This document shows, piece after piece, positions 3,164 through 45,063 of a stretch of 46,997 nucleotides of DNA. The DNA comes from a virus. Taxonomy: Duplodnaviria > Heunggongvirae > Uroviricota > Caudoviricetes. Every line of letters begins with the position of its first letter. Position 1 is the first letter of the stretch. The notes beneath the pieces were generated by a model. It was not told where the DNA came from. It saw nothing but the letters and a program-made list of their open reading frames with translations, and made no database searches. The translations under genes and the position numbers were made by a program. The DNA lies in the IMG/VR virus record IMGVR_UViG_2693429779_000010; one strand, written 5' to 3'.

Positions 3164-3217
3164 TAAGTAATATGCAGGCGGCGCAGTGCGTCGCCTCTGA
3201 CTGAAAGGAGTTTCCTG

Positions 3218-6541: not shown

Positions 6542-6547
6542 GGAGTC

Positions 6548-7042
6548 ATGGCCATGATGATGATCTACGGCATGTTTGTTTTTGAGCTGCGTACATTGCC
6601 GCATCAGCAGTTACAGCAAAACAAAAGCTGGCGGCATGTGAAAAATGAACGCGTTAACCGTTCGGCAAGCTGGCAGTATATCGGTGCAGGTGATGAGCGC
6701 ATCGTTCTTTCTGGTGTGCTTTATCCTGAAATTACAGGTGGCGAAGTGTCGCTGTCGCTGCTGACCACGCAGGCGTATACAGGACGACCCTGGCCTCTGA
6801 TTGATGGCGTCGGGCAGATTTACGGCATGTATGTCCTGACCGAAACGAATACGACCCGCTCCGAGTTTGATCGCTACGGTAAGGCGAAAAAGATAGAATT
6901 TTCACTGACTCTTGAACGCTGTGATGAGGATTTGCGGGAGCGCCTGCAATCCTCATCGTTCAGCGATATGCTGTCCGGCTTCAAAGATAAGGTAACATCA
7001 TCCCTTAACAGCGCGGCCAGTTCAGTTAAAGGGTTGTTCTGA
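6548..7042 (+). CDS. U: Tail protein U (P2 gpU homolog)
   Basis: 164-aa ORF immediately after the tape-measure gene; size and position match P2 U. Confidence 0.75.
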   Translation: MAMMMIYGMFVFELRTLPHQQLQQNKSWRHVKNERVNRSASWQYIGAGDERIVLSGVLYPEITGGEVSLSLLTTQAYTGRPWPLIDGVGQIYGMYVLTETNTTRSEFDRYGKAKKIEFSLTLERCDEDLRERLQSSSFSDMLSGFKDKVTSSLNSAASSVKGLF

Positions 7043-7050
7043 TTTAACAC

Positions 7051-7088
7051 AAAAACCGCTAATGGTCAGATTAGCGGTTATTTTGTTT
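7051..7088. terminator. Bidirectional rho-independent terminator between convergent U and invertase genes
   Basis: AAAAA-ACCGCTAAT-ggtcag-ATTAGCGGT-TATTTTGTTT: 9-10 bp stem with A-tract on one side and T-tract on the other; pin stop codon lies in the stem. Confidence 0.6.
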
Positions 7089-7665
7089 CCTGACTCTTCT
7101 CTATTGTTCCGATTGATTCTCCTGCGGGGTGGTAACGATAAATCGTCGATATACCAATGCCGTAAATTATTGCCAGTTGTTTTCTGTCGTGCCCGTTTTT
7201 GATCAGCCTTGCTATTTGCTCATGCTGTTCTTTTGTCAGCTTCGGTCGACGTCCGCCTGTGCGCCCCCGTGCGCGTGCTGCCGCCAGTCCGGCCAGTGTA
7301 CGTTCAACAATTAATTCACGTTCCATTTCAGCCAGGGCACCCATCACGTGGAAGAAAAAACGCCCCATTGGAGAAGATGTATCTATGCTGTCGGTCAGAC
7401 TGCGAAAATTAATTCCTCGCTCCCGTAGTTCCCCGACGAGAGAAATCAGATGTTTCATGCTTCGCCCGAGGCGATCCAGTTTCCAGACAACCAGCGTGTC
7501 ACCTTTTTGAAGGCGCTTTAAAGCGCGTTTTAATCCCGGTCGGTCTGTCTTTGTCCCGCTTAATTTATCTTCAAATATTTGTTCACATCCTGCACAAACA
7601 AGAGCGTTTCGTTGCAGGTCTGTATTCTGGTCATTTGTTGATACCCTTACATAGCCAATCAGCAC
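7078..7665 (-). CDS. pin: Serine DNA invertase (Gin/Pin/Cin/Hin family)
   Basis: Translation ...LIGYVRVSTNDQNTDLQRNALVCAGCEQIFEDKLSGTKTDRPGLKRALKRLQKGDTLVVWKLDRLGRSMKHL... is near-identical to recalled Gin/Pin N-terminus. Likely GTG start at 7663-7665 (GGGAGA 6 nt upstream); track ORF extends to a TTG at 7683. Confidence 0.9.
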   Translation of the reverse strand: MLIGYVRVSTNDQNTDLQRNALVCAGCEQIFEDKLSGTKTDRPGLKRALKRLQKGDTLVVWKLDRLGRSMKHLISLVGELRERGINFRSLTDSIDTSSPMGRFFFHVMGALAEMERELIVERTLAGLAAARARGRTGGRRPKLTKEQHEQIARLIKNGHDRKQLAIIYGIGISTIYRYHPAGESIGTIEKSQETK

Positions 7666-7719
7666 GCTGAATCTCCCGTCCAAAAGCGCAAATCATGCCA
7701 TGCAGGCCGGAAACGGCCA

Positions 7720-9313: not shown

Positions 9314-9847
9314 TCATTCTGGTTGTTCGGGAAACGTTACTGGCAGGCTGGAGGTGTCTGTGGATTCGACCTTCTGCGCATAGAGCATCCACTCGGTTAA
9401 TTTTTGTTTATTCTCGTCGGAAATAATGCCCAGCCGTAGCTGTGAGTCCCATAGCTGGGTTTTATCCCTGACGAGCTGTAGCAGGCTTTGCTTTTCATTT
9501 TCCGCTTGTTGCCTCTGCTCTTCCCCGGTATAAGTTCGCTTTATCACTACGCCATCTTTGAACATCCATTTACCTGAAATATCAGCCCGGCGATTTGCTG
9601 TAATATCAGGAACCTCAACGACGCTTGCGCCTTCCGGATTAATTGCTGAAACATCCTTTTCAATACAAATAATAACGCCGTTGTGGTCATAGACCATTTT
9701 CAACGTATCAGGCTGAAAGTTCTTTTGTTCCTCATACCAGTTTTTCCCATCCTCTGTATAAAGCCATTTGATGTTAAATTGTTTCGTTAGCTGGTATTGC
9801 TCTTTTGTTTCAGGATTACCAGCAGAAATGTTTTTTAAGTGCATCAT
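9314..9847 (-). CDS. Tail fibre assembly protein, cassette B (copy 1)
   Basis: 177 aa, MMHLKNISAGNPETKEQ...; identical copy at 13378-13911. Confidence 0.8.
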   Translation of the reverse strand: MMHLKNISAGNPETKEQYQLTKQFNIKWLYTEDGKNWYEEQKNFQPDTLKMVYDHNGVIICIEKDVSAINPEGASVVEVPDITANRRADISGKWMFKDGVVIKRTYTGEEQRQQAENEKQSLLQLVRDKTQLWDSQLRLGIISDENKQKLTEWMLYAQKVESTDTSSLPVTFPEQPE

Positions 9848-9849
9848 CG

Positions 9850-10116
9850 TTAAATACTCCCCGCGTTATACCACGTCCCATTAATGCAATACTGAATTGG
9901 CCTTGCCTGAGTTGTATCAATTAGTTCATCTCTGTTTGAGTTAACGGAACCGGTAACAACATAACCTGACCTGTCAGACCATCCGGGACCATTCCATGTC
10001 TGAACAGATAACAGACCACCAAGGCGAATACCTGTAATAAACCTTGAGTTACATTCTGCCTGCGTATATGCACCAACATCTCCCGCAGAGGGTTTGCGGG
10101 TTGTGGTGTAAAACTC
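9850..10116 (-). pseudogene. 3' fragment of tail-fibre variable domain B, cut off from its 5' part by IS600 (copy 1)
   Basis: Encodes ...EFYTTTRKPSAGDVGAYTQAECNS...INGTWYNAGSI; the matching upstream codons (...GFEADWSE) lie at 18192 on the other side of IS600 copy 3. Confidence 0.75.
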
Positions 10117-11258
10117 TGAGGTGTACTGGCAATAGCGGACACTACCATTTGTTCTTTTTTTAAGCAGCCATCTGATGATATTTTTCCCTGAAGGCTGCCG
10201 GGGAGATATTCCCCAGACGAGAGTGACGACGCTGACGATTGTAGAAAATCTCAATGTATTCCCGTATTACTGAGATGGCTTCATCCCGGTTATTAAAACG
10301 ATAGTGGCTCAGGCTCTCATTTTTCAGCGTTCCCCAGAAGCTTTCCATCGGAGCGTTGTCGTAACAGTTACCTTTACGCGACATTGATGTTTTCAGACCA
10401 GACTGCTCCTGTATGACCCGGTAATCGTATGCGCAGTACTGTGAACCTCGATCAGAGTGGTGGATTAGCCCGGCAGGTGGGCGCTGGCTCCTGAGCGCCA
10501 TAAACAGGGCTTTACCTGTCAGCTCTTTTGTCATGCGCTCTCCCATGGCGTAGCCGACAATTTCGCACGTATAAACATCTTTGATGCCAGCGAGGTACAA
10601 CCATCCCTCCTGTGTGGCAACATACGTCAGGTCCGCCACCCAGACCTGATTTGGTGCTGTAGGAGCGAACGTCTGGTTCAGCAGATTTGGCGCAACTGGC
10701 AGATTGTGGTTCGAGTTCGTAGTCGCTCTGAACTTGCGTTTCTGCTTACAGCGTAGCCTTAGCTCCTTACGAAGACGTGCCAGTCGGTCACGACCAACGA
10801 TGATGCCATTCTCTGCCAGCTCCGTCTGGAGCCGCCGGGTTCCATATGTTTCGCGAGTGCGGATATGTGCCACCTTAATCTCCAGTTTTAGCCGCTCATC
10901 ACTTTGTTTTCTGTCTGAGGGTTCATGCTGTACCCAGTTGTAATAACCGCTCCTGGATACACCAAATACCTGACACATCGCTTCAATGGGAAATTGTTGT
11001 CGCCATTGTTCGATTAACGCGTATTTTTCAGCGACTCCTGTGCAAAATACGCTGTTGCTTTTTTTAATATATCTCGCTCAAGGCGAGCTTCATTTAACGC
11101 CTTACGCAGTTGCAGAATTTCAGATTCCAGTTCAGCCACCGTGCGGGAACCAGGAGTACCGAGCCCTTTTCTGGCGGCGGTAACCCATTGTCCTAAAGTG
11201 CCTTCAGGAAGAGATAATCGGGAAGCGCCTTCACTGATCGAAAGTTGATTTTCAAGAT
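10117..11258 (-). mobile_element. IS600 (IS3 family) copy 1, truncated at the orfA end
   Basis: Starts with TGAGGTGTACTGGCAATAGCGGACACT inverted repeat at 10117; identical to copies 2 and 3 up to ~11258 (...GATTTTCAAGA), then diverges into unrelated sequence. Confidence 0.85.
10160..10978 (-). CDS. IS600 transposase OrfB (DDE integrase domain)
   Basis: 272-aa ORF identical in all three copies; IS3-family OrfB. Confidence 0.9.
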   Translation of the reverse strand: MCQVFGVSRSGYYNWVQHEPSDRKQSDERLKLEIKVAHIRTRETYGTRRLQTELAENGIIVGRDRLARLRKELRLRCKQKRKFRATTNSNHNLPVAPNLLNQTFAPTAPNQVWVADLTYVATQEGWLYLAGIKDVYTCEIVGYAMGERMTKELTGKALFMALRSQRPPAGLIHHSDRGSQYCAYDYRVIQEQSGLKTSMSRKGNCYDNAPMESFWGTLKNESLSHYRFNNRDEAISVIREYIEIFYNRQRRHSRLGNISPAAFREKYHQMAA

Positions 11259-11645
11259 GGAACTCTATACGGAGCCACAATTCTTGGCGATGGAGTTGTG
11301 CACAATAGCTTCGGTCAAAAACTGATGCGCATTTACAATCAGAAAGGCATCTTTTCAAACACAAAAGATTCCGAAGAAGGCTTAACACATATACTCTCAG
11401 AGCATTTCGAGAATGTTAAAACCAGGGTTCAAGGTACTGTAGTAATGTTTTCCGCTTCAGGGAAAAAATAGCATCCAACCGCAGCACGTTCTTGCTTAAG
11501 ACGTGCTGCGGCATAATCCCAATGATTACTCCCTGACAGGGTTCGTAGGCCACTCAATATCAGGTGCAGTTGATGTATCAACACGGTTCAGCAACACCCG
11601 ATACTTTTTCTAGGCTTCCACCACCAGCACGACAAGATGCCGCAT
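11259..11645. other. ~390-bp segment of unknown origin joining truncated IS600 to the decayed invertase copy
   Basis: No match to IS600, the invertase region or fibre genes; contains hairpin GCAGCACGT-n11-ACGTGCTGC at ~11421-11449. Confidence 0.4.
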
Positions 11646-11870
11646 ACAGTGACCCAGTCAGTCCAGTTTTCAGACAACCAGTGCGTCACCTTTTTGAAGG
11701 CGCTTTAAAGCACGTTTTAATCCAGGTCGGCCTGTCCTTGTTCCGCTTAATTTATCTTCAAATATTTGTTCATATCCTGCACAAACAAGAGCGTTTCGTT
11801 GCAGGTCTGTATTCTGGTCATTTGTTGATACCCTTACATAGCCAATCAGCACGCTGAATCTCCCGTCCAA
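11646..11870 (-). pseudogene. Decayed duplicate of the invertase 5' end (pin')
   Basis: ~95% DNA identity to 7470-7700; TGG to TGA change gives ...GDALVV* where pin has ...GDTLVVWKLD; homology ends at ~11646. Confidence 0.8.
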
Positions 11871-11906
11871 AAGCGCAAATCATGCCATGCAGGCCGGAAA
11901 CGGCCA

Positions 11907-11932
11907 TTATCTAAAACCTCGGTTTACAGGAA
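11907..11932 (+). other. pix-type crossover site 2 (identical to site 1)
   Basis: TTATCTAAAACCTCGGTTTACAGGAA downstream of pin'. Confidence 0.8.
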
Positions 11933-11977
11933 ACGGTAAACAAGGCTGGTAACGCCGTTCAGCGTTCCGGCGATAAA

Positions 11978-12820
11978 ATGACCGGAGAACTGAAAATTGG
12001 CACGGTGAATGCGCTGCGAATTTTCAATGATACCTTCGGTCTAATTTTCCGTCGTTCAGAAGATTTTCTTCATTTCATTCCGACGGCTGAAGGACAAGGC
12101 GAAAACGGTAATATCGGCCCATTAAGGCCATTCGCTATAAATCTGAGAACAGGTGCTATATCTGTCAGCCACGGGGCCAAAATTAAAGGAGGTCTAGCTA
12201 TTGGAGCTACTGATAACGCACTGGGTGAAAACTCCATTGTTCTGGGAGATAACGACACCGGATTTAGGCAAGATGGAGATGGTATTATTAGCTTCTATTC
12301 AAATGGTTCGCGCATCGGACATATTGATGAGTTAGGATTACATCTTTATAAAGATATTGAATCTAATGGCAGCAATTTTAGATTAAAAAGTAATTACCGC
12401 CACCACATTACATTCGCCAACGAAGACGGAAGAATTCGTATGTTTTTGTGGAAAGATAACGGTGGTGATGGTGTTCATATTAATAACGGTTCAGATGGTG
12501 GTGGTGATTTCATTTTTAAAACAGATGGGGGATTTGCGCTGGGAAGTGGTGCGCAAGTTGCGTCTAGTGGCGATATTTATGGTTCAGTGTGGGAAAACAA
12601 CTGGTTAAGCACATGGCTGCATAATCATGTCGTTCGGGATATTCGTCTTGGCAGCATTGAATATAAAAACGTATGGCGCGACTACGGCTTTGGCGATGCG
12701 TCAGGTTATGTTTTAACAGCCGCAATTAACAGCAATGCGGATGATATTGTCGACACTGTTGCCAGAAGGCCAATTCAGAAATTGATTGGGGGAATATGGT
12801 ACAACGTGGGGAGTGTTTAA
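11978..12820 (+). CDS. Tail-fibre variable C-terminal cassette C
   Basis: Open in frame from pix-2 (...[26 protein letters not shown]...), ends ...[13 protein letters not shown]; related to cassette A but lacks its ~90-aa N-proximal segment. Confidence 0.75.
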
Positions 12821-12821
12821 G

Positions 12822-13349
12822 ATGATGCACCTGAAAAATATTAAGGCCGGGAATCCGAAAACACCGGAACAATACCAGCTAACTAAAAAAGCGGGCGTGG
12901 TATGGCTCTTTTGCGAAGATGGCAAAAACTGGTATGAGGAACAAAAGAATTTTCAGCCAGACACCATAAAAATTGCTTACGATGAGAACAACATCATCGT
13001 TGCTGTCAGTAAAGACGTTTCAACTATTAATCCTGAAGGGCTAAGCATAGTTGAAGTTCCTGATATTACGGCAAATCGTCACGCAGACAATAACGGAAAA
13101 TGGATGTTTCTGGATGGTAAAGTAGTAAAGAGGGAATATACAGAACAGGAACTGCAACAACAGGCCGAATCACAAAAGGCCGCATTGCTTTCCGAAGCTG
13201 AATCAGTCATCCAGCCGCTGGAACGCGCTGTCAGGCTGAATATGGCGACGGACGAGGAACGCACACGACTGGAAGCATGGGAACGCTACAGTGTTCTGGT
13301 CAGCCGTGTGGATACGGCAAAGCCAGAATGGCCACAAAAGCCTGAGTAA
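12822..13349 (+). CDS. Tail fibre assembly protein, cassette C
   Basis: [17 protein letters not shown]...; C-terminal ~65 aa identical to tfaA. Confidence 0.8.
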
Positions 13350-13354
13350 AAATT

Positions 13355-13374
13355 AAGGCCCGATATCGGGCCTT
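13355..13374. terminator. Second copy of the 20-bp palindrome
   Basis: Identical to 9291-9310. Confidence 0.5.
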
Positions 13375-13377
13375 GTT

Positions 13378-13911
13378 TCATTCTGGTTGTTCGGGAAACG
13401 TTACTGGCAGGCTGGAGGTGTCTGTGGATTCGACCTTCTGCGCATAGAGCATCCACTCGGTTAATTTTTGTTTATTCTCGTCGGAAATAATGCCCAGCCG
13501 TAGCTGTGAGTCCCATAGCTGGGTTTTATCCCTGACGAGCTGTAGCAGGCTTTGCTTTTCATTTTCCGCTTGTTGCCTCTGCTCTTCCCCGGTATAAGTT
13601 CGCTTTATCACTACGCCATCTTTGAACATCCATTTACCTGAAATATCAGCCCGGCGATTTGCTGTAATATCAGGAACCTCAACGACGCTTGCGCCTTCCG
13701 GATTAATTGCTGAAACATCCTTTTCAATACAAATAATAACGCCGTTGTGGTCATAGACCATTTTCAACGTATCAGGCTGAAAGTTCTTTTGTTCCTCATA
13801 CCAGTTTTTCCCATCCTCTGTATAAAGCCATTTGATGTTAAATTGTTTCGTTAGCTGGTATTGCTCTTTTGTTTCAGGATTACCAGCAGAAATGTTTTTT
13901 AAGTGCATCAT
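13378..13911 (-). CDS. Tail fibre assembly protein, cassette B (copy 2)
   Basis: Identical to 9314-9847. Confidence 0.8.
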   Translation of the reverse strand: MMHLKNISAGNPETKEQYQLTKQFNIKWLYTEDGKNWYEEQKNFQPDTLKMVYDHNGVIICIEKDVSAINPEGASVVEVPDITANRRADISGKWMFKDGVVIKRTYTGEEQRQQAENEKQSLLQLVRDKTQLWDSQLRLGIISDENKQKLTEWMLYAQKVESTDTSSLPVTFPEQPE

Positions 13912-13913
13912 CG

Positions 13914-14180
13914 TTAAATACTCCCCGCGTTATACCACGTCCCATTAATGCAATACTGAATTGGCCTTGCCTGAGTTGTATCAATTAGTTCATCTCTGTT
14001 TGAGTTAACGGAACCGGTAACAACATAACCTGACCTGTCAGACCATCCGGGACCATTCCATGTCTGAACAGATAACAGACCACCAAGGCGAATACCTGTA
14101 ATAAACCTTGAGTTACATTCTGCCTGCGTATATGCACCAACATCTCCCGCAGAGGGTTTGCGGGTTGTGGTGTAAAACTC
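13914..14180 (-). pseudogene. 3' fragment of fibre variable domain B (copy 2), abutting IS600 copy 2
   Basis: Identical to 9850-10116. Confidence 0.75.
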
Positions 14181-14223
14181 TGAGGTGTACTGGCAATAGC
14201 GGACACTACCATTTGTTCTTTTT

Positions 14224-15042
14224 TTAAGCAGCCATCTGATGATATTTTTCCCTGAAGGCTGCCGGGGAGATATTCCCCAGACGAGAGTGACGACGCTGAC
14301 GATTGTAGAAAATCTCAATGTATTCCCGTATTACTGAGATGGCTTCATCCCGGTTATTAAAACGATAGTGGCTCAGGCTCTCATTTTTCAGCGTTCCCCA
14401 GAAGCTTTCCATCGGAGCGTTGTCGTAACAGTTACCTTTACGCGACATTGATGTTTTCAGACCAGACTGCTCCTGTATGACCCGGTAATCGTATGCGCAG
14501 TACTGTGAACCTCGATCAGAGTGGTGGATTAGCCCGGCAGGTGGGCGCTGGCTCCTGAGCGCCATAAACAGGGCTTTACCTGTCAGCTCTTTTGTCATGC
14601 GCTCTCCCATGGCGTAGCCGACAATTTCGCACGTATAAACATCTTTGATGCCAGCGAGGTACAACCATCCCTCCTGTGTGGCAACATACGTCAGGTCCGC
14701 CACCCAGACCTGATTTGGTGCTGTAGGAGCGAACGTCTGGTTCAGCAGATTTGGCGCAACTGGCAGATTGTGGTTCGAGTTCGTAGTCGCTCTGAACTTG
14801 CGTTTCTGCTTACAGCGTAGCCTTAGCTCCTTACGAAGACGTGCCAGTCGGTCACGACCAACGATGATGCCATTCTCTGCCAGCTCCGTCTGGAGCCGCC
14901 GGGTTCCATATGTTTCGCGAGTGCGGATATGTGCCACCTTAATCTCCAGTTTTAGCCGCTCATCACTTTGTTTTCTGTCTGAGGGTTCATGCTGTACCCA
15001 GTTGTAATAACCGCTCCTGGATACACCAAATACCTGACACAT
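14224..15042 (-). CDS. IS600 transposase OrfB
   Basis: 272 aa, identical to other copies. Confidence 0.9.
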   Translation of the reverse strand: MCQVFGVSRSGYYNWVQHEPSDRKQSDERLKLEIKVAHIRTRETYGTRRLQTELAENGIIVGRDRLARLRKELRLRCKQKRKFRATTNSNHNLPVAPNLLNQTFAPTAPNQVWVADLTYVATQEGWLYLAGIKDVYTCEIVGYAMGERMTKELTGKALFMALRSQRPPAGLIHHSDRGSQYCAYDYRVIQEQSGLKTSMSRKGNCYDNAPMESFWGTLKNESLSHYRFNNRDEAISVIREYIEIFYNRQRRHSRLGNISPAAFREKYHQMAA

Positions 15043-15077
15043 CGCTTCAATGGGAAATTGTTGTCGCCATTGTTCGA

Positions 15078-15380
15078 TTAACGCGTATTTTTCAGCGACT
15101 CCTGTGCAAAATACGCTGTTGCTTTTTTTAATATATCTCGCTCAAGGCGAGCTTCATTTAACGCCTTACGCAGTTGCAGAATTTCAGATTCCAGTTCAGC
15201 CACCGTGCGGGAACCAGGAGTACCGAGCCCTTTTCTGGCGGCGGTAACCCATTGTCCTAAAGTGCCTTCAGGAAGAGATAATCGGGAAGCGCCTTCACTG
15301 ATCGAAAGTTGATTTTCAAGAACCGTTCTGACAGCTTCGGCTTTGAACTCTTTAGAGTAACGTTGGGTTTTTCTGCTCAT
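15078..15380 (-). CDS. IS600 OrfA (HTH transposase N-terminal subunit)
   Basis: 100 aa MSRKTQRYSKEFKAEAVRTV...; TTAAAAAAAGC slippery run near the orfA/orfB overlap. Confidence 0.9.
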   Translation of the reverse strand: MSRKTQRYSKEFKAEAVRTVLENQLSISEGASRLSLPEGTLGQWVTAARKGLGTPGSRTVAELESEILQLRKALNEARLERDILKKATAYFAQESLKNTR

Positions 15381-15444
15381 TATTAGCTCCTTCTGATGCC
15401 ATTCTATTTCAGGAAGGAGTGTCCGTTAAACTCAGGCTACCTCA

Positions 15445-15937
15445 AGTCTGTGGATTCAACCTTCTGCGCATAGAGCATCCACTCGGTTAATTTTTGTTTA
15501 TTCTCATCGGAAATGATGCCCAGCTGTAGCTGAGAGTCCCACAGCTGGGTTTTATCCCTGACGAGCTGCAGCAGGCTCTGCTTTTCATTTTCCGCTTGTT
15601 GCCTTTGCTCTTCCTCGGTATAAGTTCGCTTTATCACCGCACCATCTTTGAACATCCAGTTGCCCGAAATATCAGCCCGGCGATTTGCTGTAATATCAGG
15701 CAACTCAACGACACTTAAACCTTCTGGATTAATTGCTGATACATCCTTGTCTATAGCAATAATTATTCCCTCAACTGTGTAAGCCAGTTTTATTGTATCC
15801 TCCTGAAAGTTTTTTAATTCCTCATGCCAATTTTTTCCATCTTCGGACCATAACCAGATAACATCAAAATTCTTTGTTAGCTGGTATTGTTCAACGGTTT
15901 TTGGATTACCTGCGACAATGTTTTTTAAATGCTGCAT
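15445..15937 (-). CDS. Tail fibre assembly protein, cassette D, C-terminus truncated by IS600 copy 2
   Basis: [15 protein letters not shown]...KVESTD then runs into the IS end (LR*); the last ~11 codons seen in tfaB are missing. Confidence 0.75.
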
Positions 15938-15939
15938 GA

Positions 15940-16927
15940 TTATACCTGCGATACGTTATACCATGTTCCGTTAATTAACTTTTGTATTGGTCTGAATACT
16001 GCCGGATCATCACCATCGACTTCACCGATAATACCAAGCCCCGTGATTACATGGCCTGATTTTTCATACATCACGCCTTTCTTCATGGTCTAAACAACTC
16101 GTGTGCCAAGTCTGACATCTCTCACATAGCGGGAATCAAAGTTACCGTAATCCGAGGGATTAACACGTCCCGTAATATTTATGGTTTTATTACTTTGAAT
16201 GCTTCCGGAGACAAAGCGCATAACATGGACGTTATTAGCATAAACATCCAGATTACCATCGCCTTTTTGTTTAAAGCCCGTGTCATTATCACCCAATACA
16301 ATCGAATTACCGCCAAGAGCACTGGATGTTCCGATACCCAGTGCACCATTCAGTTGACCACCAGATAACGGCAGTGCACCAACATCTCCTGCTGAAGGTT
16401 TTCTGGTGGTGTAAAATTCGGACCAGTCGGCTTCAAAACCATAACCATCACGGGCTGAACGATAAAAAATACCGCCATTTTTATAATTAATCCGAAACTG
16501 AGCTGCAGGACAACTTCCTTCTCCCATATAAAAATGAATAATTAACGTTGATGCACCACTAATAGTTGCGTTATAGGCTCCGCTACTCCAGTTCCATCCA
16601 ACTGCTTTATCATTCGCAACGGTGCTTCCTGTTTTCCCTAAGGCAAACGCACCAACATGACTTGCTTTTAATGTGATATCGGAGGAACCATCAAAAGCCA
16701 CATTGCTTATTTTCCTGGCAGTTTTTAATTTTGCAGCTGTAGAAGCATTGCCGGATAGTTCACCAGAAAGGCCACCGCTGAATGTTTGTCGATTAGTCCA
16801 GGTATTCGCTGTACTGAGTAACGGTATTTTCTCCCCGCTTGTGCCGAGTTCTCGTAAACCGAGGTATTCGATAACGGCAGCAACGGTCGATTTCGCAAGA
16901 ATATCCCGCCCGACTTTTGTCAGGGTA
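15940..16927 (-). pseudogene. Tail-fibre 3' portion D (end of constant region, pix-like site, variable domain) with in-frame amber stop; 5' end cut by IS600 copy 3
   Basis: ...TLTKVGRDILAKSTVAAVIEYLGL...DVRLGTRVV-TAG-TMKKGVMYEKSGHVITGL...[11 protein letters not shown]; the TAG at 16090-16092 sits where recalled P2 H has Gln. Confidence 0.7.
16849..16874 (-). other. Degenerate pix-like site inside fibre fragment D (inverted orientation)
   Basis: TTCTCGTAAACC-GA-GGTATTCGATAA; 4 mismatches to the reverse complement of pix-1; encodes VIEYLGL. Confidence 0.55.
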
Positions 16928-16970
16928 TGAGGTGTACTGGCAATAGCGGACACTACCATTTGTTCTTTTT

Positions 16971-17789
16971 TTAAGCAGCCATCTGATGATATTTTTCCCT
17001 GAAGGCTGCCGGGGAGATATTCCCCAGACGAGAGTGACGACGCTGACGATTGTAGAAAATCTCAATGTATTCCCGTATTACTGAGATGGCTTCATCCCGG
17101 TTATTAAAACGATAGTGGCTCAGGCTCTCATTTTTCAGCGTTCCCCAGAAGCTTTCCATCGGAGCGTTGTCGTAACAGTTACCTTTACGCGACATTGATG
17201 TTTTCAGACCAGACTGCTCCTGTATGACCCGGTAATCGTATGCGCAGTACTGTGAACCTCGATCAGAGTGGTGGATTAGCCCGGCAGGTGGGCGCTGGCT
17301 CCTGAGCGCCATAAACAGGGCTTTACCTGTCAGCTCTTTTGTCATGCGCTCTCCCATGGCGTAGCCGACAATTTCGCACGTATAAACATCTTTGATGCCA
17401 GCGAGGTACAACCATCCCTCCTGTGTGGCAACATACGTCAGGTCCGCCACCCAGACCTGATTTGGTGCTGTAGGAGCGAACGTCTGGTTCAGCAGATTTG
17501 GCGCAACTGGCAGATTGTGGTTCGAGTTCGTAGTCGCTCTGAACTTGCGTTTCTGCTTACAGCGTAGCCTTAGCTCCTTACGAAGACGTGCCAGTCGGTC
17601 ACGACCAACGATGATGCCATTCTCTGCCAGCTCCGTCTGGAGCCGCCGGGTTCCATATGTTTCGCGAGTGCGGATATGTGCCACCTTAATCTCCAGTTTT
17701 AGCCGCTCATCACTTTGTTTTCTGTCTGAGGGTTCATGCTGTACCCAGTTGTAATAACCGCTCCTGGATACACCAAATACCTGACACAT
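16971..17789 (-). CDS. IS600 transposase OrfB
   Basis: 272 aa, identical to other copies. Confidence 0.9.
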   Translation of the reverse strand: MCQVFGVSRSGYYNWVQHEPSDRKQSDERLKLEIKVAHIRTRETYGTRRLQTELAENGIIVGRDRLARLRKELRLRCKQKRKFRATTNSNHNLPVAPNLLNQTFAPTAPNQVWVADLTYVATQEGWLYLAGIKDVYTCEIVGYAMGERMTKELTGKALFMALRSQRPPAGLIHHSDRGSQYCAYDYRVIQEQSGLKTSMSRKGNCYDNAPMESFWGTLKNESLSHYRFNNRDEAISVIREYIEIFYNRQRRHSRLGNISPAAFREKYHQMAA

Positions 17790-17824
17790 CGCTTCAATGG
17801 GAAATTGTTGTCGCCATTGTTCGA

Positions 17825-18127
17825 TTAACGCGTATTTTTCAGCGACTCCTGTGCAAAATACGCTGTTGCTTTTTTTAATATATCTCGCTCAAGGCGAGCT
17901 TCATTTAACGCCTTACGCAGTTGCAGAATTTCAGATTCCAGTTCAGCCACCGTGCGGGAACCAGGAGTACCGAGCCCTTTTCTGGCGGCGGTAACCCATT
18001 GTCCTAAAGTGCCTTCAGGAAGAGATAATCGGGAAGCGCCTTCACTGATCGAAAGTTGATTTTCAAGAACCGTTCTGACAGCTTCGGCTTTGAACTCTTT
18101 AGAGTAACGTTGGGTTTTTCTGCTCAT
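17825..18127 (-). CDS. IS600 OrfA
   Basis: 100 aa, identical to copy 2. Confidence 0.9.
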   Translation of the reverse strand: MSRKTQRYSKEFKAEAVRTVLENQLSISEGASRLSLPEGTLGQWVTAARKGLGTPGSRTVAELESEILQLRKALNEARLERDILKKATAYFAQESLKNTR

Positions 18128-34901: not shown

Positions 34902-35213
34902 TCATTCAGGAAATAATGCCCGGATATTCCCTGCTATCTGACTGGTTATCTGTGCGGTTGGTACTGGCTGTGGCACGGGGCGTTCTGTCCTGGTTTGTGT
35001 CACCGATAACGCCTCATCGTCAGCCCATGCAGCCAGTCGGTAAGCCTCTGCTGGATTCATTTTCAGAAGTGCCAGCCCGGCCAGAAAAGCCACGCGTTGG
35101 CCGCTTTTGCGGGCTTCTGGTGTAAGGCTGCCCAGCCAGGCGCATGCTTCGCTTTCGTTCTTGACGGCCGCAGGCTTCAGATAGAAACTTATCCGTCTGG
35201 TTGGTGTCGTCAT
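34902..35213 (-). CDS. parR: ParR/StbB-like centromere-binding protein (putative)
   Basis: Internal ATG at 35211-35213 with AAGGAG RBS, 4 nt after parM stop; MTTPTRRISFYLKP...RVAFLAGLAL... parallels recalled R1 ParR (RRTIAFKLNP...ALTAGLAL). Confidence 0.55.
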   Translation of the reverse strand: MTTPTRRISFYLKPAAVKNESEACAWLGSLTPEARKSGQRVAFLAGLALLKMNPAEAYRLAAWADDEALSVTQTRTERPVPQPVPTAQITSQIAGNIRALFPE

Positions 35214-35217
35214 TGGT

Positions 35218-36177
35218 TTACTCCTTGTCCATTGCGTACAGCCCATTAACCAGAGCAAACTGTGGCACCCCGTCCGCGATGAAAGTCGCATTAACTCCGC
35301 AGGCTTCGCGGATAGCGGGTGCCACAATCTCCGCCCCTCCACCGACAACCATCACCCGCCCGTAACCCGAAAAACCCGCCAGCGCGCGGATCACGCGTTG
35401 TTTCAGTGTTTCTTCCTTTTCACGAATAACCGCCATCAGGCTGGCGTAATGCGCGTCATTGTGGATGTGCTGGCGCAGCCAGGCTTCATCATGGCGATGT
35501 TCGATAATGGTATTGGCGATGTGGTGACTGGTGCGCATACCGTTAGTGGCCATCACCGACAGTACGGCATCGGCCATCAGAGAAACGCCTACGTGTGGAT
35601 CGCAAAACACCTGGCTGATACCTGCCAGTTGCCCCTGAACCTTTGCCACATCCAGCGTGGTTCCGCCCAAATCCACAATCAGCAGGGATTCAAACGGACT
35701 CATGTCAGCCAGTGCCTTAAAGCCAGCCGGAATGGATTCAGGCATAACCCGCACGTTACGGATAGTGAATGCTTCGCCGTTCTGGTACTCCACCGGGCGC
35801 ATAACGTTCGCTTTTTTGCGGTTGATGTTGGCCATGTCCGGCTGTGCGTTTGTGTCGAAATACTCGCTCAGTGGCAGGGGGACAACCACATCCACCTCCT
35901 GTGGCGTGATGCCTGATTTGACCAGCGCGTGATGAATGGCAATGACATTTACATCGCTGTACTGGTATTGCGTGTCGGTTGTCTGGACAAAGCGATCGCT
36001 GACCGGATCAAAACCATAGCGCACGCCATCAAGCATGTAGTTCGCGGGCTGCATGCCACCGAACGGCGCAGACCATTCCGACTTGAAGCTGTTCGGGCTG
36101 ATGGCGTTGCGGCGTTCGCCGTTCTCAGTCCATGCCAGCTTGATGTTGGTGGAGCCGTCGTCGATACAAATTTTCAT
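35218..36177 (-). CDS. parM: ParM/StbA-like actin-type ATPase
   Basis: MKICIDDGSTNIKLAW...ISPNSFK...YQYSDVNVIAIHHAL...VMPESIPAGF...LLIVDLGGTTLDV...GISQV...VMVVGGGAEIV...LVNGLYAM matches recalled R1 ParM along its full length. Confidence 0.8.
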   Translation of the reverse strand: MKICIDDGSTNIKLAWTENGERRNAISPNSFKSEWSAPFGGMQPANYMLDGVRYGFDPVSDRFVQTTDTQYQYSDVNVIAIHHALVKSGITPQEVDVVVPLPLSEYFDTNAQPDMANINRKKANVMRPVEYQNGEAFTIRNVRVMPESIPAGFKALADMSPFESLLIVDLGGTTLDVAKVQGQLAGISQVFCDPHVGVSLMADAVLSVMATNGMRTSHHIANTIIEHRHDEAWLRQHIHNDAHYASLMAVIREKEETLKQRVIRALAGFSGYGRVMVVGGGAEIVAPAIREACGVNATFIADGVPQFALVNGLYAMDKE

Positions 36178-40783: not shown

Positions 40784-41122
40784 TTATAAATCAGCCTGTT
40801 TAATAAAACTTTGCCCGCGAAGCAGACGATCAACCGTGCGAAGTGCTTCGTATAATGTGAAATCCTGCCCGAACTGATTGTCGCCACAGCTCAGTGCAAA
40901 AATGCGGTTTCCGGTAAACGGATTGCGTGGGCATTTGTGGATCACGATTCCAGCTTTCTCAATCAGCCAGGCGTGCTCGCCGATTTGTTTTACTGGGTAG
41001 CCATCCGGCGTTGCGTGTGTATCACTCAGGCTGTAGCGGATGTTGCTGCGTGATGCACTGGTAGTGAAACGGTTAGCGTGGCGTTCTGTTCCGGTACAAA
41101 AATTACGGCGTTGCTTCAGCAT
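40784..41122 (-). CDS. Hypothetical early protein (112 aa)
   Basis: ORF in the early operon downstream of the cox-position gene. Confidence 0.4.
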   Translation of the reverse strand: MLKQRRNFCTGTERHANRFTTSASRSNIRYSLSDTHATPDGYPVKQIGEHAWLIEKAGIVIHKCPRNPFTGNRIFALSCGDNQFGQDFTLYEALRTVDRLLRGQSFIKQADL

Positions 41123-41136
41123 AAAATGACACCTCG

Positions 41137-41415
41137 TTATTTTGTCATCTGCACGTATTTCTCTGCGTTTCTGATGGTTTTCAGGAAAATTGCGAAGAGA
41201 TTTACTTTGCGTTTTGTGTTTCTTCCTTCTTGAGTAACGGGAATTACCGATCTATCAGCCTGCCTTCTTACAGCGAGAATGCTTTGATTTGTGCGTTTCG
41301 CATAATCCTCTAGGCTTTCTTCAAGTACCGGTAGCCCATGTTCATTACGGTATGGGTAGAACGCCGCCAAACGCTCAAAATCCGCTTGTTCGTATGTGTT
41401 AAGGACTTTTGCCAT
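41137..41415 (-). CDS. Cox/Apl-position small protein (putative excisionase/early regulator)
   Basis: 92 aa, divergent from the repressor gene as P2 cox is from C; only weak resemblance to recalled P2 Cox. Confidence 0.4.
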   Translation of the reverse strand: MAKVLNTYEQADFERLAAFYPYRNEHGLPVLEESLEDYAKRTNQSILAVRRQADRSVIPVTQEGRNTKRKVNLFAIFLKTIRNAEKYVQMTK

Positions 41416-41510
41416 GGTGTGATAACCTATTCAATCTGGTGCTATTTGTGGCTCTTTGTAGCGTCAAGTGGTACTCAACTGATAACCAATATAGTATTCA
41501 GGTGCACACC
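41416..41510. promoter_or_regulatory. Divergent early promoter/operator region between cox-position gene and repressor
   Basis: Direct repeats TGATAACC at 41420-41427 and 41480-41487 (60-bp spacing), AT-rich. Confidence 0.4.
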
Positions 41511-41822
41511 ATGTCAATAGAGATATCAAAGAAGCTAAAAGCAATTCGAGAATCTGAGGGGCTTAGTCAGGCAAAGTTCGCGGATTCAATAGGTATTGCG
41601 GTTGGTACGGTTAAGCAATACGAGACTGGTATTCGAGGTGTGGGAACGGAGGTTTTACTGAAAATCACAATGCACCCGGAATTTAAAAAATACACTACGT
41701 GGTTGATGAGTAACGAAACAAATGAGGCTGCTGGGCAGATCAGTCCTTCTCTCTCCCCTGATGGGCCAGAAAACACATCGTCTTCTCAAAAATCCCGCAA
41801 GACTGGCACACAGCCCGGCTAA
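41511..41822 (+). CDS. C: Immunity repressor (P2 C-type HTH protein)
   Basis: Internal ATG 41511 (AGGTG upstream); ~103 aa; HTH ...LSQAKFADSIGIAVGTVKQYETG...; directly upstream of int. Confidence 0.7.
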   Translation: MSIEISKKLKAIRESEGLSQAKFADSIGIAVGTVKQYETGIRGVGTEVLLKITMHPEFKKYTTWLMSNETNEAAGQISPSLSPDGPENTSSSQKSRKTGTQPG

Positions 41823-41871
41823 TCATGGAACGCTGGGGGCATGGTGGTCTTGTAACGCTGGGGCTTCACGA

Positions 41872-42849
41872 ATGAGCATAAAATCAATTCCGGGAGGGTA
41901 TCTTCTTGACATGCGTCCTGAGGGGCGTAAAGGCAAACGCATTCGCAAAAAATTTAAAACGAAATCGGATGCAGTTTTATATGAGCGGTGGGTGCTGGCG
42001 CAACAGCATAACAATGAGTGGAAAGGAAACTCCATTGATCGCCGTCCGCTGTCAGTGCTTATTGACTTGTGGTGGAAATACCACGGCCAGCTAATGAAGT
42101 CAGGGCATAACACGCGCCTTAAATTGCTGCGCTTGAGTGAGGCAATGGATGACCCGTGCGTGCATAAACTTAATACAACGATGCTCACCGAGCTACGTGT
42201 GTCCAGGATAGAGCAGGGGATACAGCCCAGCACCATAAATCGAGAGATTGGGGCGTTAAGCGCGATGTTTACCGCACTCATCTCATCCGGCCATTTTCTT
42301 AACGATAACCCCGTTCAAGGCCTTAAAGGAATGAAGGTTAACGAGCGTGAAATGGGATATCTGAGTAAGTCTGAATGTGTTCAGTTGCTGGATGCACTGG
42401 CTGAAAATCCCGATGAACGGCTGGCCGTCGAAATCCTTCTGTCGACCGGGGCGCGATGGGGCGAGGTAGCGGCACTGGAGCAGCGCCGTGTTCTTCATTG
42501 TCGAATCACTTTTTCAAAAACGAAGAACAGCAAAAACCGTACCGTTCCTATTTCTGAAAGCCTGTTTGAAAAGATCAAAAAACGGGGCGGGAAACTGGTG
42601 TTTCCGACGCTGGATTATTCATTGGTTCGCGATGTCATCAAAACGGTCGCACCTGATGTTCCTGACGGCCAGGCTGTTCATGCGCTGCGCCACACCTTCG
42701 CCAGTCATTTCATGATGAACGGCGGCAATATTCTGACGCTCCAGAAAATTCTGGGGCACGCAAAGATTCAGACAACGATGATTTATGCCCATCTTGCGCC
42801 GGATTACTTGCAGGATGCGGTGAGGTTTAATCCCTTGGGAGGAATGTAA
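41872..42849 (+). CDS. int: Tyrosine integrase
   Basis: Start at ATG 41872 after repressor stop; C-terminal catalytic signature ...HALRHTFASHFMMNGGNILTLQKILGHAKIQTTMIYAHL. Confidence 0.9.
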   Translation: MSIKSIPGGYLLDMRPEGRKGKRIRKKFKTKSDAVLYERWVLAQQHNNEWKGNSIDRRPLSVLIDLWWKYHGQLMKSGHNTRLKLLRLSEAMDDPCVHKLNTTMLTELRVSRIEQGIQPSTINREIGALSAMFTALISSGHFLNDNPVQGLKGMKVNEREMGYLSKSECVQLLDALAENPDERLAVEILLSTGARWGEVAALEQRRVLHCRITFSKTKNSKNRTVPISESLFEKIKKRGGKLVFPTLDYSLVRDVIKTVAPDVPDGQAVHALRHTFASHFMMNGGNILTLQKILGHAKIQTTMIYAHLAPDYLQDAVRFNPLGGM

Positions 42850-42851
42850 CT

Positions 42852-43352
42852 ATGGAAATAAAAAAACCTACAAAAAAAGAGTTATATGACTATTTACTAT
42901 CGAAATATATAGAAGATAAATGCAAAGAAGAAGCTGATGAAATCAATAAGAAGTCGATGAGTCGTGTCAAAAAACATAAAGAGCGGCTGATGGAGATTAC
43001 GCCAGAAATCTTCTTCCGTTTCTTGTCTGAGAAGGGGGTCTCCAGTGTCTGCCCTTCATGTGGATCGTCGCGATTATCTGTTCCAGAAAGTATGGATCTT
43101 TGCTGGGATAAAAATAAGAAACCAGAAAATTTTAACAATCTACCCCTGGAGGAACAGAGTGAGTTAATTAAAGAGAACATAAAGCATTATGTATCTTATG
43201 CTTTTTTGGGTGATGTTAAGAGCATACCTGATATGCGCAAAACTTATTACACGCTGCATTGCCTGAATTGTGGTTACCTGAGCCTTTATCGTACGTCTGC
43301 GGTGCTGAAGTGGTTGGAGAAAGACAAAGCGCAGGATGGTGATAATGGGTAA
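42852..43352 (+). CDS. AT-rich moron: zinc-ribbon protein of unknown function
   Basis: 166 aa, Lys/Glu-rich, CPSCGS and HCLNCGY motifs ~70 aa apart; markedly lower GC than neighbours; starts 3 nt after int stop. Confidence 0.55.
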   Translation: MEIKKPTKKELYDYLLSKYIEDKCKEEADEINKKSMSRVKKHKERLMEITPEIFFRFLSEKGVSSVCPSCGSSRLSVPESMDLCWDKNKKPENFNNLPLEEQSELIKENIKHYVSYAFLGDVKSIPDMRKTYYTLHCLNCGYLSLYRTSAVLKWLEKDKAQDGDNG

Positions 43353-43890
43353 TGTAGCAAGAAATCTTTTCGGTAATTCAGCAGGTAGTGTGTCGCATTC
43401 TGAGCGTGATGTGCTTTATCATGGTGGCGATGGCGGCAGTAGTGGAGGCGGAATGTCAGATAAACTTGAAAGGCGAATTGAGCGGCTCGAAGGTGATTTA
43501 TCGCTAACAAGAAACGACCTTGCGACGCTTGCTGAACGCACTACAAACCTCTCAACTAAAGCCGATGTTGGTGAGGTGAAAGGTGAACTCAAAGCAGACA
43601 TAGCACATCTGAAAGGTGATCTTGAATGCGATATTGCGAATCTGAAAGGTGAGCTTAAATCTGATACAGCTAACCTGAAAGAGCAGCTCAAATCAGACAT
43701 TAACAGCCTGAAGGGTGAGCTTACCGAAGCGATGGATAAACGCTTTGACAAGATTATGGATGAGATGAATCGGCGGTTTGACAAGGTTGATGATAATACG
43801 AAGTGGCGTTGGAGTGGCATTATTGTGCCAGTGTGCACAACCATTTTCACAGCGGCGGTTGCTGTATTTGTTGCTAAATTTGTTGGCTGA
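43336..43890 (+). CDS. AT-rich moron: coiled-coil repeat protein with C-terminal transmembrane anchor
   Basis: Gly/Ser-rich N-terminus, ~11-residue repeats (LKGELKADIAHLKGDLECDIANLKGELKSDTANLKEQLKSDINSLKGEL), C-terminal hydrophobic WSGIIVPVCTTIFTAAVAVFVAKFVG; overlaps upstream gene; start uncertain. Confidence 0.55.
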   Translation: MVIMGNVARNLFGNSAGSVSHSERDVLYHGGDGGSSGGGMSDKLERRIERLEGDLSLTRNDLATLAERTTNLSTKADVGEVKGELKADIAHLKGDLECDIANLKGELKSDTANLKEQLKSDINSLKGELTEAMDKRFDKIMDEMNRRFDKVDDNTKWRWSGIIVPVCTTIFTAAVAVFVAKFVG

Positions 43891-43999
43891 TGATCCACAA
43901 ATTGACCACATCTCTGTTATTTGTTGTGGTTGGCTGTGTTTTTGTGTGTCTGTAAGTCTTTGATAATTACCTAACTTATTGATTTTTGTTTGTGTTTAT

Positions 44000-44025
44000 G
44001 GCCGCTCTGCGGCCTTTTTTCTTTT
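44000..44025 (+). terminator. Rho-independent terminator upstream of btuC
   Basis: GGCCGC-tct-GCGGCC followed by TTTTTTCTTTT. Confidence 0.6.
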
Positions 44026-44082
44026 CACTGTCGAAGAGTCACCGTAAAATCAACGCCATGACACTTCAGCAGAACGGATACC

Positions 44083-45063
44083 ATGCTGACACTTGCCCGC
44101 CAACAACAGCGACAAAATATTCGCTGGTTATTATGCCTGTCAGTTTTGATGCTGCTGGCGCTTCTCTTAAGCCTTTGCGCCGGTGAACAATGGATTTCGC
44201 CAGGTGACTGGTTTACTCCTCGTGGCGAACTGTTCGTCTGGCAAATTCGCCTGCCACGTACGCTGGCTGTATTGCTGGTTGGTGCGGCGCTGGCTATATC
44301 CGGCGCTGTAATGCAGGCGTTGTTTGAAAATCCTCTGGCAGAACCTGGACTACTTGGCGTCTCTAACGGCGCAGGCGTGGGGCTTATCGCCGCGGTATTG
44401 CTTGGGCAAGGGCAACTCCCCAACTGGGCGCTAGGGCTGTGTGCGATTGCTGGCGCGCTTATCATCACTTTAATACTCTTACGTTTCGCCCGTCGTCATC
44501 TTTCGACCAGTCGGTTATTGCTGGCTGGCGTTGCATTAGGGATTATCTGTAGCGCACTAATGACGTGGGCTATCTACTTTTCCACCTCTGTTGATTTACG
44601 TCAGCTGATGTACTGGATGATGGGCGGTTTTGGCGGCGTAGACTGGCGGCAAAGCTGGCTGATGCTGGCATTGATCCCCGTGTTGTTGTGGATCTGTTGT
44701 CAGTCCAGGCCGATGAATATGTTAGCACTTGGCGAGATCTCGGCGCGGCAACTGGGTTTACCCCTGTGGTTCTGGCGCAATGTGCTGGTGGCAGCGACCG
44801 GCTGGATGGTTGGCGTCAGTGTGGCGCTGGCGGGTGCTATCGGCTTTATTGGTCTGGTGATCCCACATATTCTTCGGTTGTGTGGTTTAACCGATCATCG
44901 CGTATTACTTCCCGGCTGCGCGCTGGCAGGGGCGAGCGCAGTGCTGCTGGCCGATATTGTAGCGCGCCTGGCATTAGCTGCCGCAGAGCTGCCTATTGGC
45001 GTGGTCACCGCAACGTTGGGTGCGCCGGTGTTTATCTGGTTATTGTTAAAAGCAGGACGTTAG
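44083..45063 (+). CDS. btuC: Vitamin B12 ABC transporter permease
   Basis: 326 aa, [44 protein letters not shown]... matches recalled E. coli BtuC. Confidence 0.95.

Follow-up and report, generated by a model that had tools for sequence, protein, structure and literature searches.

A diversifying cassette of a zinc-ribbon gene and a coiled-coil gene between int and attP of a P2-like Escherichia coli prophage

This study concerns two adjoining genes, here called g1 and g2, at positions 42852-43890 of a 46,997-nt stretch of viral DNA (IMG/VR record IMGVR_UViG_2693429779_000010, Caudoviricetes), referred to below as the window. The window contains most of a P2-like prophage, followed by the Escherichia coli genes btuC-btuE-btuD-nlpC. 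The interval between int and attP, where g1-g2 lie, is the slot of a conserved, diversifying two-gene cassette, not of a one-off insertion. As judged from homologues and a structure model, g1 is an orphan cytosolic four-cysteine zinc-ribbon protein, and profile and motif comparisons make g2 a below-threshold member of the DUF1640/CCDC90/Bdr-type tail-anchored coiled-coil proteins. Comparison of the alleles indicates that the cassette evolves through exchange of modules, with a breakpoint that lies within a gene. We tentatively suggest that g1-g2 provide lysogen-expressed exclusion of other phages or abortive infection.

An int-attP slot with alternative occupants

The g1 open reading frame (ORF) begins 2 nt after the int stop codon, and 109 bp separate the g2 stop codon from a 25-bp att core (GGCCGCTCTGCGGCCTTTTTTCTTT), which is the intrinsic terminator of ihfA. 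This core is common to attR, to attL of the near-identical lysogen RM8426 and to attB of K-12. In prophage-free K-12, the ihfA-btuC interval spans ∼100 bp and contains neither g1 nor g2; host sequence resumes at position 44000 of the window. Because the pair is inside attR and the K-12 interval is that short, it is phage cargo and not a pair of host genes. The initial annotation, made from the sequence alone, had placed two genes directly after int and before the host junction and had considered that they might be conserved chromosomal genes in prophage-free relatives. Both ORFs were confirmed on the + strand, and K-12 has neither. The explanation that these are ordinary chromosomal genes beside btuC, or the remnant of another element outside the prophage, has a negligible chance of being right, considering the K-12 interval, the att core just past g2 and the finding of the same gene order in Klebsiella, both at another place in the chromosome and in an excised P2-like genome record of 32,368 bp, where C-int-g1-g2 is followed by the tail/D/ogr end.

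The integration site itself deserves a remark. The empty ihfA-btuC site of K-12 (locus L004, 1654-1812, − strand) matches the Rfam small RNA (sRNA) STnc540 with 67.4 bits against a cut-off of 38, and only a 22-bit remnant is left at attR of the lysogen (window 43959-44082). The prophage therefore integrates inside an sRNA locus (ihfA 3' end/btuC leader). No RNA element was found within the g1-g2 pair when 41000-44200 was scanned with Rfam.

A census of the int-attP interval was made in 5426 complete E. coli genomes. The integrase was found in 299 of them, mostly with at least 99% identity, and the attP arm in 296, with 93-100% identity irrespective of the cargo allele. The slot between them, 0.4-1.0 kb long, was never empty in these ∼300 genomes. 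It contained one of five unrelated or very divergent alleles, whose sum of 300 corresponds to essentially all carriers (296-299): (i) TK3046, a single unrelated gene of 131 aa (158 genomes), (ii) E956, encoding a 110-aa zinc-ribbon protein and a 145-aa anchored coiled coil (86 genomes), (iii) the window allele, g1 plus g2 (23 genomes), (iv) ETEC1748, with proteins of 127 and 99 aa (19 genomes), and (v) 2D, with a g1 left unannotated by RefSeq and a g2 core 99% identical to that of the window (14 genomes). The four homologous-pair alleles together occur in 142 of the 5426 genomes (∼2.6%), including many Shiga-toxin-producing lineages. By hhalign, membership in the g1 family has a probability of 99.4-99.8% for the other three g1 proteins, and membership in the g2 family one of 99.2% for E956 g2; ETEC1748 g2 shares only the common architecture and a short motif. 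Because the slot is never empty and four of its alleles are divergent versions of the same pair, a sporadic insertion is not what we see.

Some of these genes have escaped annotation. The 2D-type g1 (132 aa, four Cys, hhalign 99.8%; locus L002, 5522-5920) is unannotated in RefSeq in 14 of 14 E. coli carriers and is also uncalled in a Salmonella assembly (locus L027, ∼2600-3000). The 131-aa TK3046-type protein (locus L015, 2108-2503), whose carriers include O55:H7 CB9615, has no Pfam, NCBIfam or PADLOC match and is a candidate cargo gene.

Outside E. coli, int is followed by the pair in Salmonella, where the chromosomal site is the same, and in Klebsiella, where it is another one; in Providencia, the pair is found beside ogr/gpD. 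In the Providencia element (locus L009, 6869-8472), two more unannotated genes, encoding a 309-aa protein with an N-terminal transmembrane (TM) segment and a 216-aa protein, lie between the pair and ogr. Some lineages may have a larger cassette.

The initial annotation had given both genes a much lower GC content than their flanks. This stands for g1 (0.385), a clear outlier in a prophage where only 1.1% of 500-bp segments have a GC content ≤0.40, and much less so for g2 (0.452), which is mildly low only; the values for int, the prophage part of the window and the host part are 0.494, 0.518 and 0.520, respectively. Both genes are under purifying selection: relative to a 97.5%-identical relative, the ratio of nonsynonymous to synonymous polymorphism (pN/pS) amounts to 0.08 in g1, 0.12 in the core of g2 and 0.03 in int. 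Antisense ORFs at 42890-43180 and 43419-43898 are by-products of the repetitive coding frame. The statement that neither gene resembles a P2 gene is backed by tblastn. In a set of 50,697 phage records, g1 had no match, and the only matches of g2 were a single P2-like record from Klebsiella and remote DUF1640 genes in Liberibacter and APSE phages; g1 had no match in the plasmid collection either.

The genes are tightly packed, with C-int, int-g1 and g1-g2 junctions of +49, +2 and −8 nt. A σ70 consensus scan of the + strand from 41000 to the end of g2, of a kind that a weak promoter could escape, found no promoter-like site, and the first strong terminator after g2 is the att core (6 G-C pairs and a T run). 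In P2, int is transcribed together with C from Pc. We infer that g1 and g2 are the distal genes of a C-int lysogeny operon, of which the C repressor is presumably the first gene, and that they are made in lysogens. The term "moron", which the initial annotation had applied to the pair, is only partly suitable for a cassette of deviant base composition with no promoter of its own found on the + strand, in a slot that alternates between alleles.

Table 1. Features of the C-int-g1-g2-att region (window coordinates; g2 residues in 181-aa numbering)
Feature	Position	Strand	Remarks
Pe-like promoter, divergent to C	41517-41488	−	Promoter scan
C-type immunity repressor (helix-turn-helix, HTH)	41511-41822	+	RefSeq annotation mapped from a 99.9%-identical relative; HTH_3/HTH_19 on orthologues
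P2-type tyrosine integrase (int)	41872-42849	+	PF24624 Int_N, E 1.5e-28; PF00589 Phage_integrase, E 1e-19
g1	42852-43352	+	166 aa; predicted cytosolic zinc-ribbon protein
g1 first CxxC (CPSC, C67xxC70)	43050-43061	+	Putative zinc-ribbon motif
g1 second CxxC (CLNC, C137xxC140)	43260-43271	+	Putative zinc-ribbon motif
g2, long form	43345-43890	+	181 aa; frame opens at 43336 (184 aa)
g2 N-terminal extension	43345-43452	+	Variable peptide and Gly/Ser/Asp linker, predicted disordered
g2 internal ribosome-binding site and ATG (Met37)	43444-43455 (GGAGG 43444-43448, ATG 43453)	+	Candidate second start, 145-aa short form
g2 β-layer motif (L69-S-T-K-A-D74)	43549-43566	+	Head/stalk junction
g2 five 11-residue (hendecad) repeats (K72-L126)	43558-43722	+	Consensus K-x-D-[IV]-x-x-L-K-G-E-L
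g2 C-terminal TM anchor (I159-A177)	43819-43875	+	Mean Kyte-Doolittle 2.43 over 19 residues; only KFVG after
attP-derived arm of attR	43891-43999		109 bp, GC 0.32; absent from K-12
att core	44000-44024	+	25 bp

Sequence features of g1 and g2

The g1 protein had been described as Lys/Glu-rich with two CxxC motifs, and this is accurate: Lys and Glu make up 24% of its residues, its long N-terminal helix is rich in both, and the motifs are those listed in Table 1. Alignment of 43 diverse homologues revealed that C67, C70, C137, C140, G141 and W154 are invariant and that F54 is nearly so, and g1 has the family signature, CxxC...CxxCG...W after a (V/I)TPxxFxxFL helix. The AlphaFold2 (AF2) model (predicted local distance difference test, pLDDT, 82.8) consists of a 39-residue N-terminal helix and a small α/β core in which each CxxC is placed at a hairpin, as in zinc ribbons. 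The gene has a strong Shine-Dalgarno (SD) sequence. g1 matches phrog_4293 (E 8e-23), a family with neither name nor assigned function, and an exhaustive profile search of 1.84 billion representatives recovered 90 clusters at E ≤1e-3; a related-locus search with a narrow g1 alignment found two loci only. Nothing exceeded threshold in Pfam, NCBIfam or PADLOC scans of g1, its profile gave chance matches only to Protein Data Bank (PDB) sequences, and its model had no convincing match among solved or viral predicted structures. There was also no match at E ≤1 to Ogr_Delta (PF04606), the family of P2/P4 late activators.

Distant g1 homologues, from Morganella and metagenomic sequences, have different neighbors. 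They stand first in a conserved cluster in which a g1-like gene is followed by a gene for a 55-60-aa protein with two TM segments, a gene for a secreted DUF305 protein and csy1-csy4 (locus L020, 2537-7240; L022, 1803-6479; L023, 5001-10037; L025, 5001-9654). No cas1, cas2-3 or CRISPR array was found within the DNA retrieved around these loci. In L025, a P2-type repressor and integrase lie upstream of the cluster.

For g2, the tandem ∼11-residue coiled-coil repeats and C-terminal membrane anchor reported in the initial annotation were both recovered. The five repeats are KADVGEVKGEL, KADIAHLKGDL, ECDIANLKGEL, KSDTANLKEQL and KSDINSLKGEL, and Tandem Repeats Finder (TRF) detects a period of 33 in 3.2 copies at 43577-43681. 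Lengths of homologues step by 11 aa (112/123/134/145/156 and 170/181/192), so the stalk varies by whole hendecads. The coiled coil is probably trimeric, and its hendecad a/d-e/h pattern would accommodate such an assembly. Because there is no signal peptide and the anchor is terminal, the stalk is likely to be cytoplasmic. In the monomer model (184 aa, pLDDT 60), residues 1-38 are disordered (pLDDT <50), a helix spans 40-150 and a C-terminal helix 156-183.

Assignment to the DUF1640/CCDC90/Bdr group comes from several concordant matches. g2 scores 24.1 bits (E 3.7e-5) against PF07798, below the gathering cut-off of 33.5, and its close homologues carry precomputed PF07798 matches; in RefSeq, g2 goes by "DUF1640 domain-containing" or by "CCDC90 family protein". 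The profile built from homologues of g2 matches PDB 6h9l_A, an uncharacterised protein of prokaryotic origin (E 3.9e-5, 91 profile positions), across 11-residue repeats of the ATKEDIEALRK type, and g2 matches phrog_9415 with an E-value of 6.5e-15. Stalks of DUF1640 membrane proteins start with a β-layer motif of the consensus [aliphatic]-A-T-K-[polar]-[DE] (Hartmann et al., PMC4786415). The LSTKAD sequence of g2 fits this motif, with Ser replacing Ala, and none of its T, K and D residues varies among 23 homologues, nor does W154 just before the anchor. Thus g2 is like other DUF1640/CCDC90-like proteins (PF07798; MCUR1, CCDC90B; 6h9l) in its C-terminal anchor and its long coiled-coil stalk starting at a β-layer motif. 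Features not shared with them are a disordered peptide and Gly linker added at the N-terminus, what looks like a second start, and a zinc-ribbon partner gene that is obligatory.

A second group of relatives, the Bdr proteins of Borrelia, was found when plasmids were searched with g2 by tblastn. Pairwise BLASTP gives an E-value of 2e-13 over the repeats and K-W-anchor only, and Bdr itself passes PF07798 with 41.1 bits. Both proteins have tandem 11-residue repeats (LKSDI..VKSDL type in Bdr, where copy number varies between paralogues) and a conserved K-W preceding a C-terminal hydrophobic anchor. Bdr proteins associate with the inner membrane and, like g2, are carried on prophage-derived replicons (cp32 prophage-plasmids and linear plasmids). 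There are clear differences as well: g2 is from an enterobacterial P2-like phage, whereas Bdr belong to another phylum and replicon type, their genes have their own promoters and no zinc-ribbon partner has been reported for them, and g2 lacks the conserved Bdr N-terminal domain.

The start of g2 has been annotated in two ways. RefSeq/PGAP places it at ATG 43453, which gives a protein of 145 aa and a 100-nt gap after g1, with no overlap. The alternative is ATG 43345, which overlaps the g1 stop codon (ATGGGTAA). In 10 of 10 diverged alleles, with g2 core identities down to 33%, no stop interrupts the g2 frame back to the end of g1, and in all 10 a start codon overlaps the g1 stop or directly adjoins it (ATGGGTAA, ATGAGTAA, TGAGTG, TAAGTG and similar). 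The 36 upstream codons end in a conserved Gly/Asp/Ser run. In 43345-43452, synonymous and nonsynonymous substitutions are in a 3:1 ratio in the g2 frame and in 1:3 and 0:4 ratios in the other frames, in a total of four changes. The open frame, the stop-overlapping start and this substitution pattern support ATG 43345, in agreement with the overlapping genes of the initial annotation. We rejected a non-coding spacer before ATG 43453, as in the PGAP model, since every diverged allele has the open frame and a start at the g1 stop.

The downstream ATG nevertheless has features of a genuine start. GGAGG or GGAG is found 4-7 nt before the Met codon at 43453 in 9 of 10 diverged alleles, and the first Gly codon there is always the rare GGA, though neighboring third positions vary. 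In 8 of 9 alleles, the predicted energy of anti-SD pairing lies between −9.3 and −10.6 kcal/mol, which ranks this start among the top 1-2% when all ATGs of the window are considered. Exclusive use of the long start was rejected because of this conserved, strong internal SD. Both starts are probably used, so that g2 would be made as a long form, which has the N-terminal peptide, and as a short form lacking it. There is a parallel in the S105/S107 holin-antiholin of λ, a small phage membrane protein that likewise has two in-frame starts; the internal start of g2 has its own conserved SD. The g2 starts are 36 codons apart versus 1-3 in λ, g2 is not a holin by family or topology, and its isoforms are predictions.

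Allele comparisons also point to a coupling between g1 and the beginning of g2. Between window and 2D alleles, identity is 30% for g1, 34% for the g2 peptide (mostly the Gly run) and 99% for the core, with a breakpoint at ∼43440, within the Gly-linker codons of g2. Other combinations exist. When cores are compared with window g2, a g1 and peptide of 2D type are joined to a core of 59% identity in Klebsiella and of 49% in Salmonella, and a g1 and peptide of window type to a core of 56% in an E. coli locus (L026). The peptides of window-type partners have the motif (E/R)RD(V/I) and those of 2D-type partners G(V/I/M)T(P/L)(I/L). On this pattern, g1 and the first ∼35 residues of g2 appear to be one heritable unit that is shuffled onto different stalks. 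Because g1 and peptide type co-segregate across g2 cores, the simplest reading is that g1 binds the N-terminal peptide of g2.

Possible functions of the pair

That g1-g2 exclude other phages, or abort their infection, is the reading we prefer, tentatively. It is suggested by the placement in the lysogeny operon, the low GC content, the divergent alleles swapped between near-identical flanks, and published hotspots. Among P2-like phages, the int-att interval ranks as a minor hotspot for defence, holding 3% of their systems (2026 survey, PMC13586616). The repressor-integrase interval of K139-like P2 relatives is also a defence hotspot, where glo has been described as an immunity/exclusion gene. 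The view that an integrase-proximal position is typical of lysogenic-conversion or exclusion functions, put forward in the initial annotation, gains support from the int-att hotspot; the function itself is deduced from context.

In brief, the proposed mechanism would be the following. (i) The C-terminal helix of g2 would be inserted in the inner membrane, with its long, probably trimeric, hendecad coiled coil projecting into the cytoplasm. (ii) At the membrane-distal end of this stalk, a flexible Gly-rich linker would present the short variable peptide. (iii) g1, translationally coupled with g2, would dock on that peptide. (iv) The internal SD and ATG would probably also yield short g2 without the docking peptide. 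(v) The membrane-tethered complex, made continuously in lysogens, would protect against other phages at the membrane or by abortive infection, with g1 as the variable sensing or regulatory part and g2 as membrane effector or scaffold. A more specific form, in which g1-g2 would be an undescribed two-component anti-phage system whose rapidly diversifying zinc-ribbon sensor on the disordered g2 peptide switches a dual-start DUF1640 trimer to an excluding or killing state upon infection, seems to us doubtful.

Known systems offer partial parallels. rexA-rexB of λ and glo of K139 are exclusion genes co-transcribed with a repressor, and g1-g2 would likewise be placed downstream of one; K139 is, in addition, a P2 relative with a defence hotspot in its repressor-integrase interval. 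Rex combines one component in the cytosol with another in the membrane. On the other hand, neither rexA-rexB nor glo has sequence or fold similarity to g1-g2. RexB is polytopic and Glo periplasmic, whereas g2 is predicted to be a single-pass tail-anchored coiled coil, and for g1-g2 the exclusion role is a prediction. The old, tin and Z/fun genes of P2, and P2/P4 hotspots generally, resemble the pair as non-essential low-GC cargo in a fixed slot with many alternative occupants. The int-attP slot differs from the gpA-gpQ or tail region where those genes are found, the proteins are unrelated, and g1-g2 match no PADLOC model.

Several points weigh against an anti-phage role. With PADLOC-DB 2.0, g2 gave only partial coiled-coil noise to LmuB and ZorA (E 1e-4 to 4e-5), and neither g1 nor the other alleles gave anything; more broadly, nothing exceeded threshold in Pfam, NCBIfam or PADLOC for either protein or for those of the alternative alleles. 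A full-text literature search found no link of either protein's accession or of DUF1640 to phage defence, and no description of the g1-g2 pair. Characterised relatives of g2 (mitochondrial MCUR1/CCDC90B and Borrelia Bdr) are not defence proteins, and the DUF1640 genes of Liberibacter SC1, APSE-1 and one chromosomal copy stand alone, without g1. Conversely, distant g1 homologues adjoin a different small membrane protein and a csy1-4 operon, which means that g1 is not strictly tied to g2. Finally, co-transcription from Pc is argued from missing consensus signals and knowledge of P2, and the small number of substitutions in the g2 extension is a weakness.

A different explanation is that the pair has no part in resisting phages and alters the physiology of the host by lysogenic conversion. 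g2 would be an inner-membrane scaffold, a role proposed for mitochondrial MCUR1/CCDC90B, or would act like the tail-anchored ElaB/YqjD of E. coli, and would bring in g1 or host factors. Stress tolerance, membrane function or host colonisation would then be altered. Membership of g2 in the DUF1640/CCDC90/Bdr group speaks for it, as Bdr are inner-membrane proteins of Borrelia prophage-plasmids that are made during vertebrate infection. The pair would be expressed in the lysogen, and it is enriched in records of Shiga-toxin-producing and enteropathogenic E. coli (STEC/EPEC)-type strains among the matches listed. We nonetheless consider conversion unlikely: domain scans detected no host-interaction domain, and the extreme divergence of g1 and the peptide between near-identical int and att flanks fits antagonistic co-evolution better. 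The same co-segregation of g1 with the g2 peptide, together with the antitoxin-first order and the overlapping genes, could be expected of an addiction or toxin-antitoxin (TA)-like module stabilising the prophage, in which g2 would be a membrane-damaging toxin and g1 an antidote binding its N-terminal peptide. A small tail-anchored membrane protein is a plausible toxin, and genes for stabilisation are not foreign to this lineage, as the RM8426 relative has hok and a parM locus as well. We judge this improbable, because DUF1640 proteins are found alone in other phages and chromosomes and hence are not inherently lethal, because the strong internal start would make g2 without the very peptide that g1 should neutralise, and because no TA family was matched.

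Even less probable is a function in the phage life cycle, whether in control of integration and excision, in the lysis-lysogeny decision or as a lysis accessory like XhlA of PBSX. The genes do adjoin int and attP in the same operon as C, and g1 is a putative zinc-ribbon protein, as are the Ogr/Delta regulators, to which it has no match. There are weak signals of lysis proteins, namely a match of ETEC1748-allele g2 to XhlA (PF10779; E 0.0024, below cut-off) and PHROG holin and hemolysin matches of window g2 (E 0.004-0.02; holin 0.004); the PF10779 scan of window g2 itself gave no match. Against a role in recombination, the int/att arm is 93-100% identical while five alleles swap, one of them an unrelated single gene; since int and att do not co-vary with the cassette, it is dispensable for recombination. 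A lysis gene would be wrongly placed in a lysogeny operon, and the prophage has P2-type lysis genes elsewhere.

Other features of the prophage and significance

The tail-fibre region (9314-18127) contains three identical copies of an IS3-family element (rve transposase, 272 aa), in repeats that start near 10117, 14181 and 16928, and a 4064-bp direct duplication of tail-fibre-assembly genes. RM8426 is without this expansion, and the prophage may be rearranged or defective here. A Hin/Cin-type serine invertase gene adjoins the region (7081-7683, − strand; PF00239, E 1.5e-50). In 203-7042, a sheath-tube-E-T-U block (1467-7042, + strand) is inverted relative to gpD (203-1441, − strand) and H-I-J-W-V (− strand), unlike in P2. 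This order looks like a feature of the lineage and not an assembly error, because it is the same in RM8426 and in the Providencia element (L009). The gpA-gpQ hotspot (34902-36177, − strand) encodes a ParM actin-like segregation ATPase (PF06406, E 5e-81) and its partition partner, a plasmid-type system that is unusual in an integrating P2-like phage. In RM8426, hok and a gene for a 500-aa PIN protein are found near ogr.

Prophage cargo in a known hotspot is of a familiar kind; the architecture of g1-g2 matches no described system. Prokaryotic DUF1640 proteins, including Borrelia Bdr, described in ∼2000, have no known function. Here, an E. coli member of this group comes with an obligatory partner, natural allele swaps and repeat-number variants, which makes function, topology and partner binding tractable by standard genetics. 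If the pair were a two-component anti-phage system, this would be the first function for a prokaryotic DUF1640/Bdr-type protein, in a genetically tractable host; it would also represent a new architecture among defence systems and strengthen the case for int-attP as a cargo slot in P2-like phages. Should the pair have no role in defence, g1-g2 would still be a clean case of a lysogeny-operon cassette that evolves by modular exchange.

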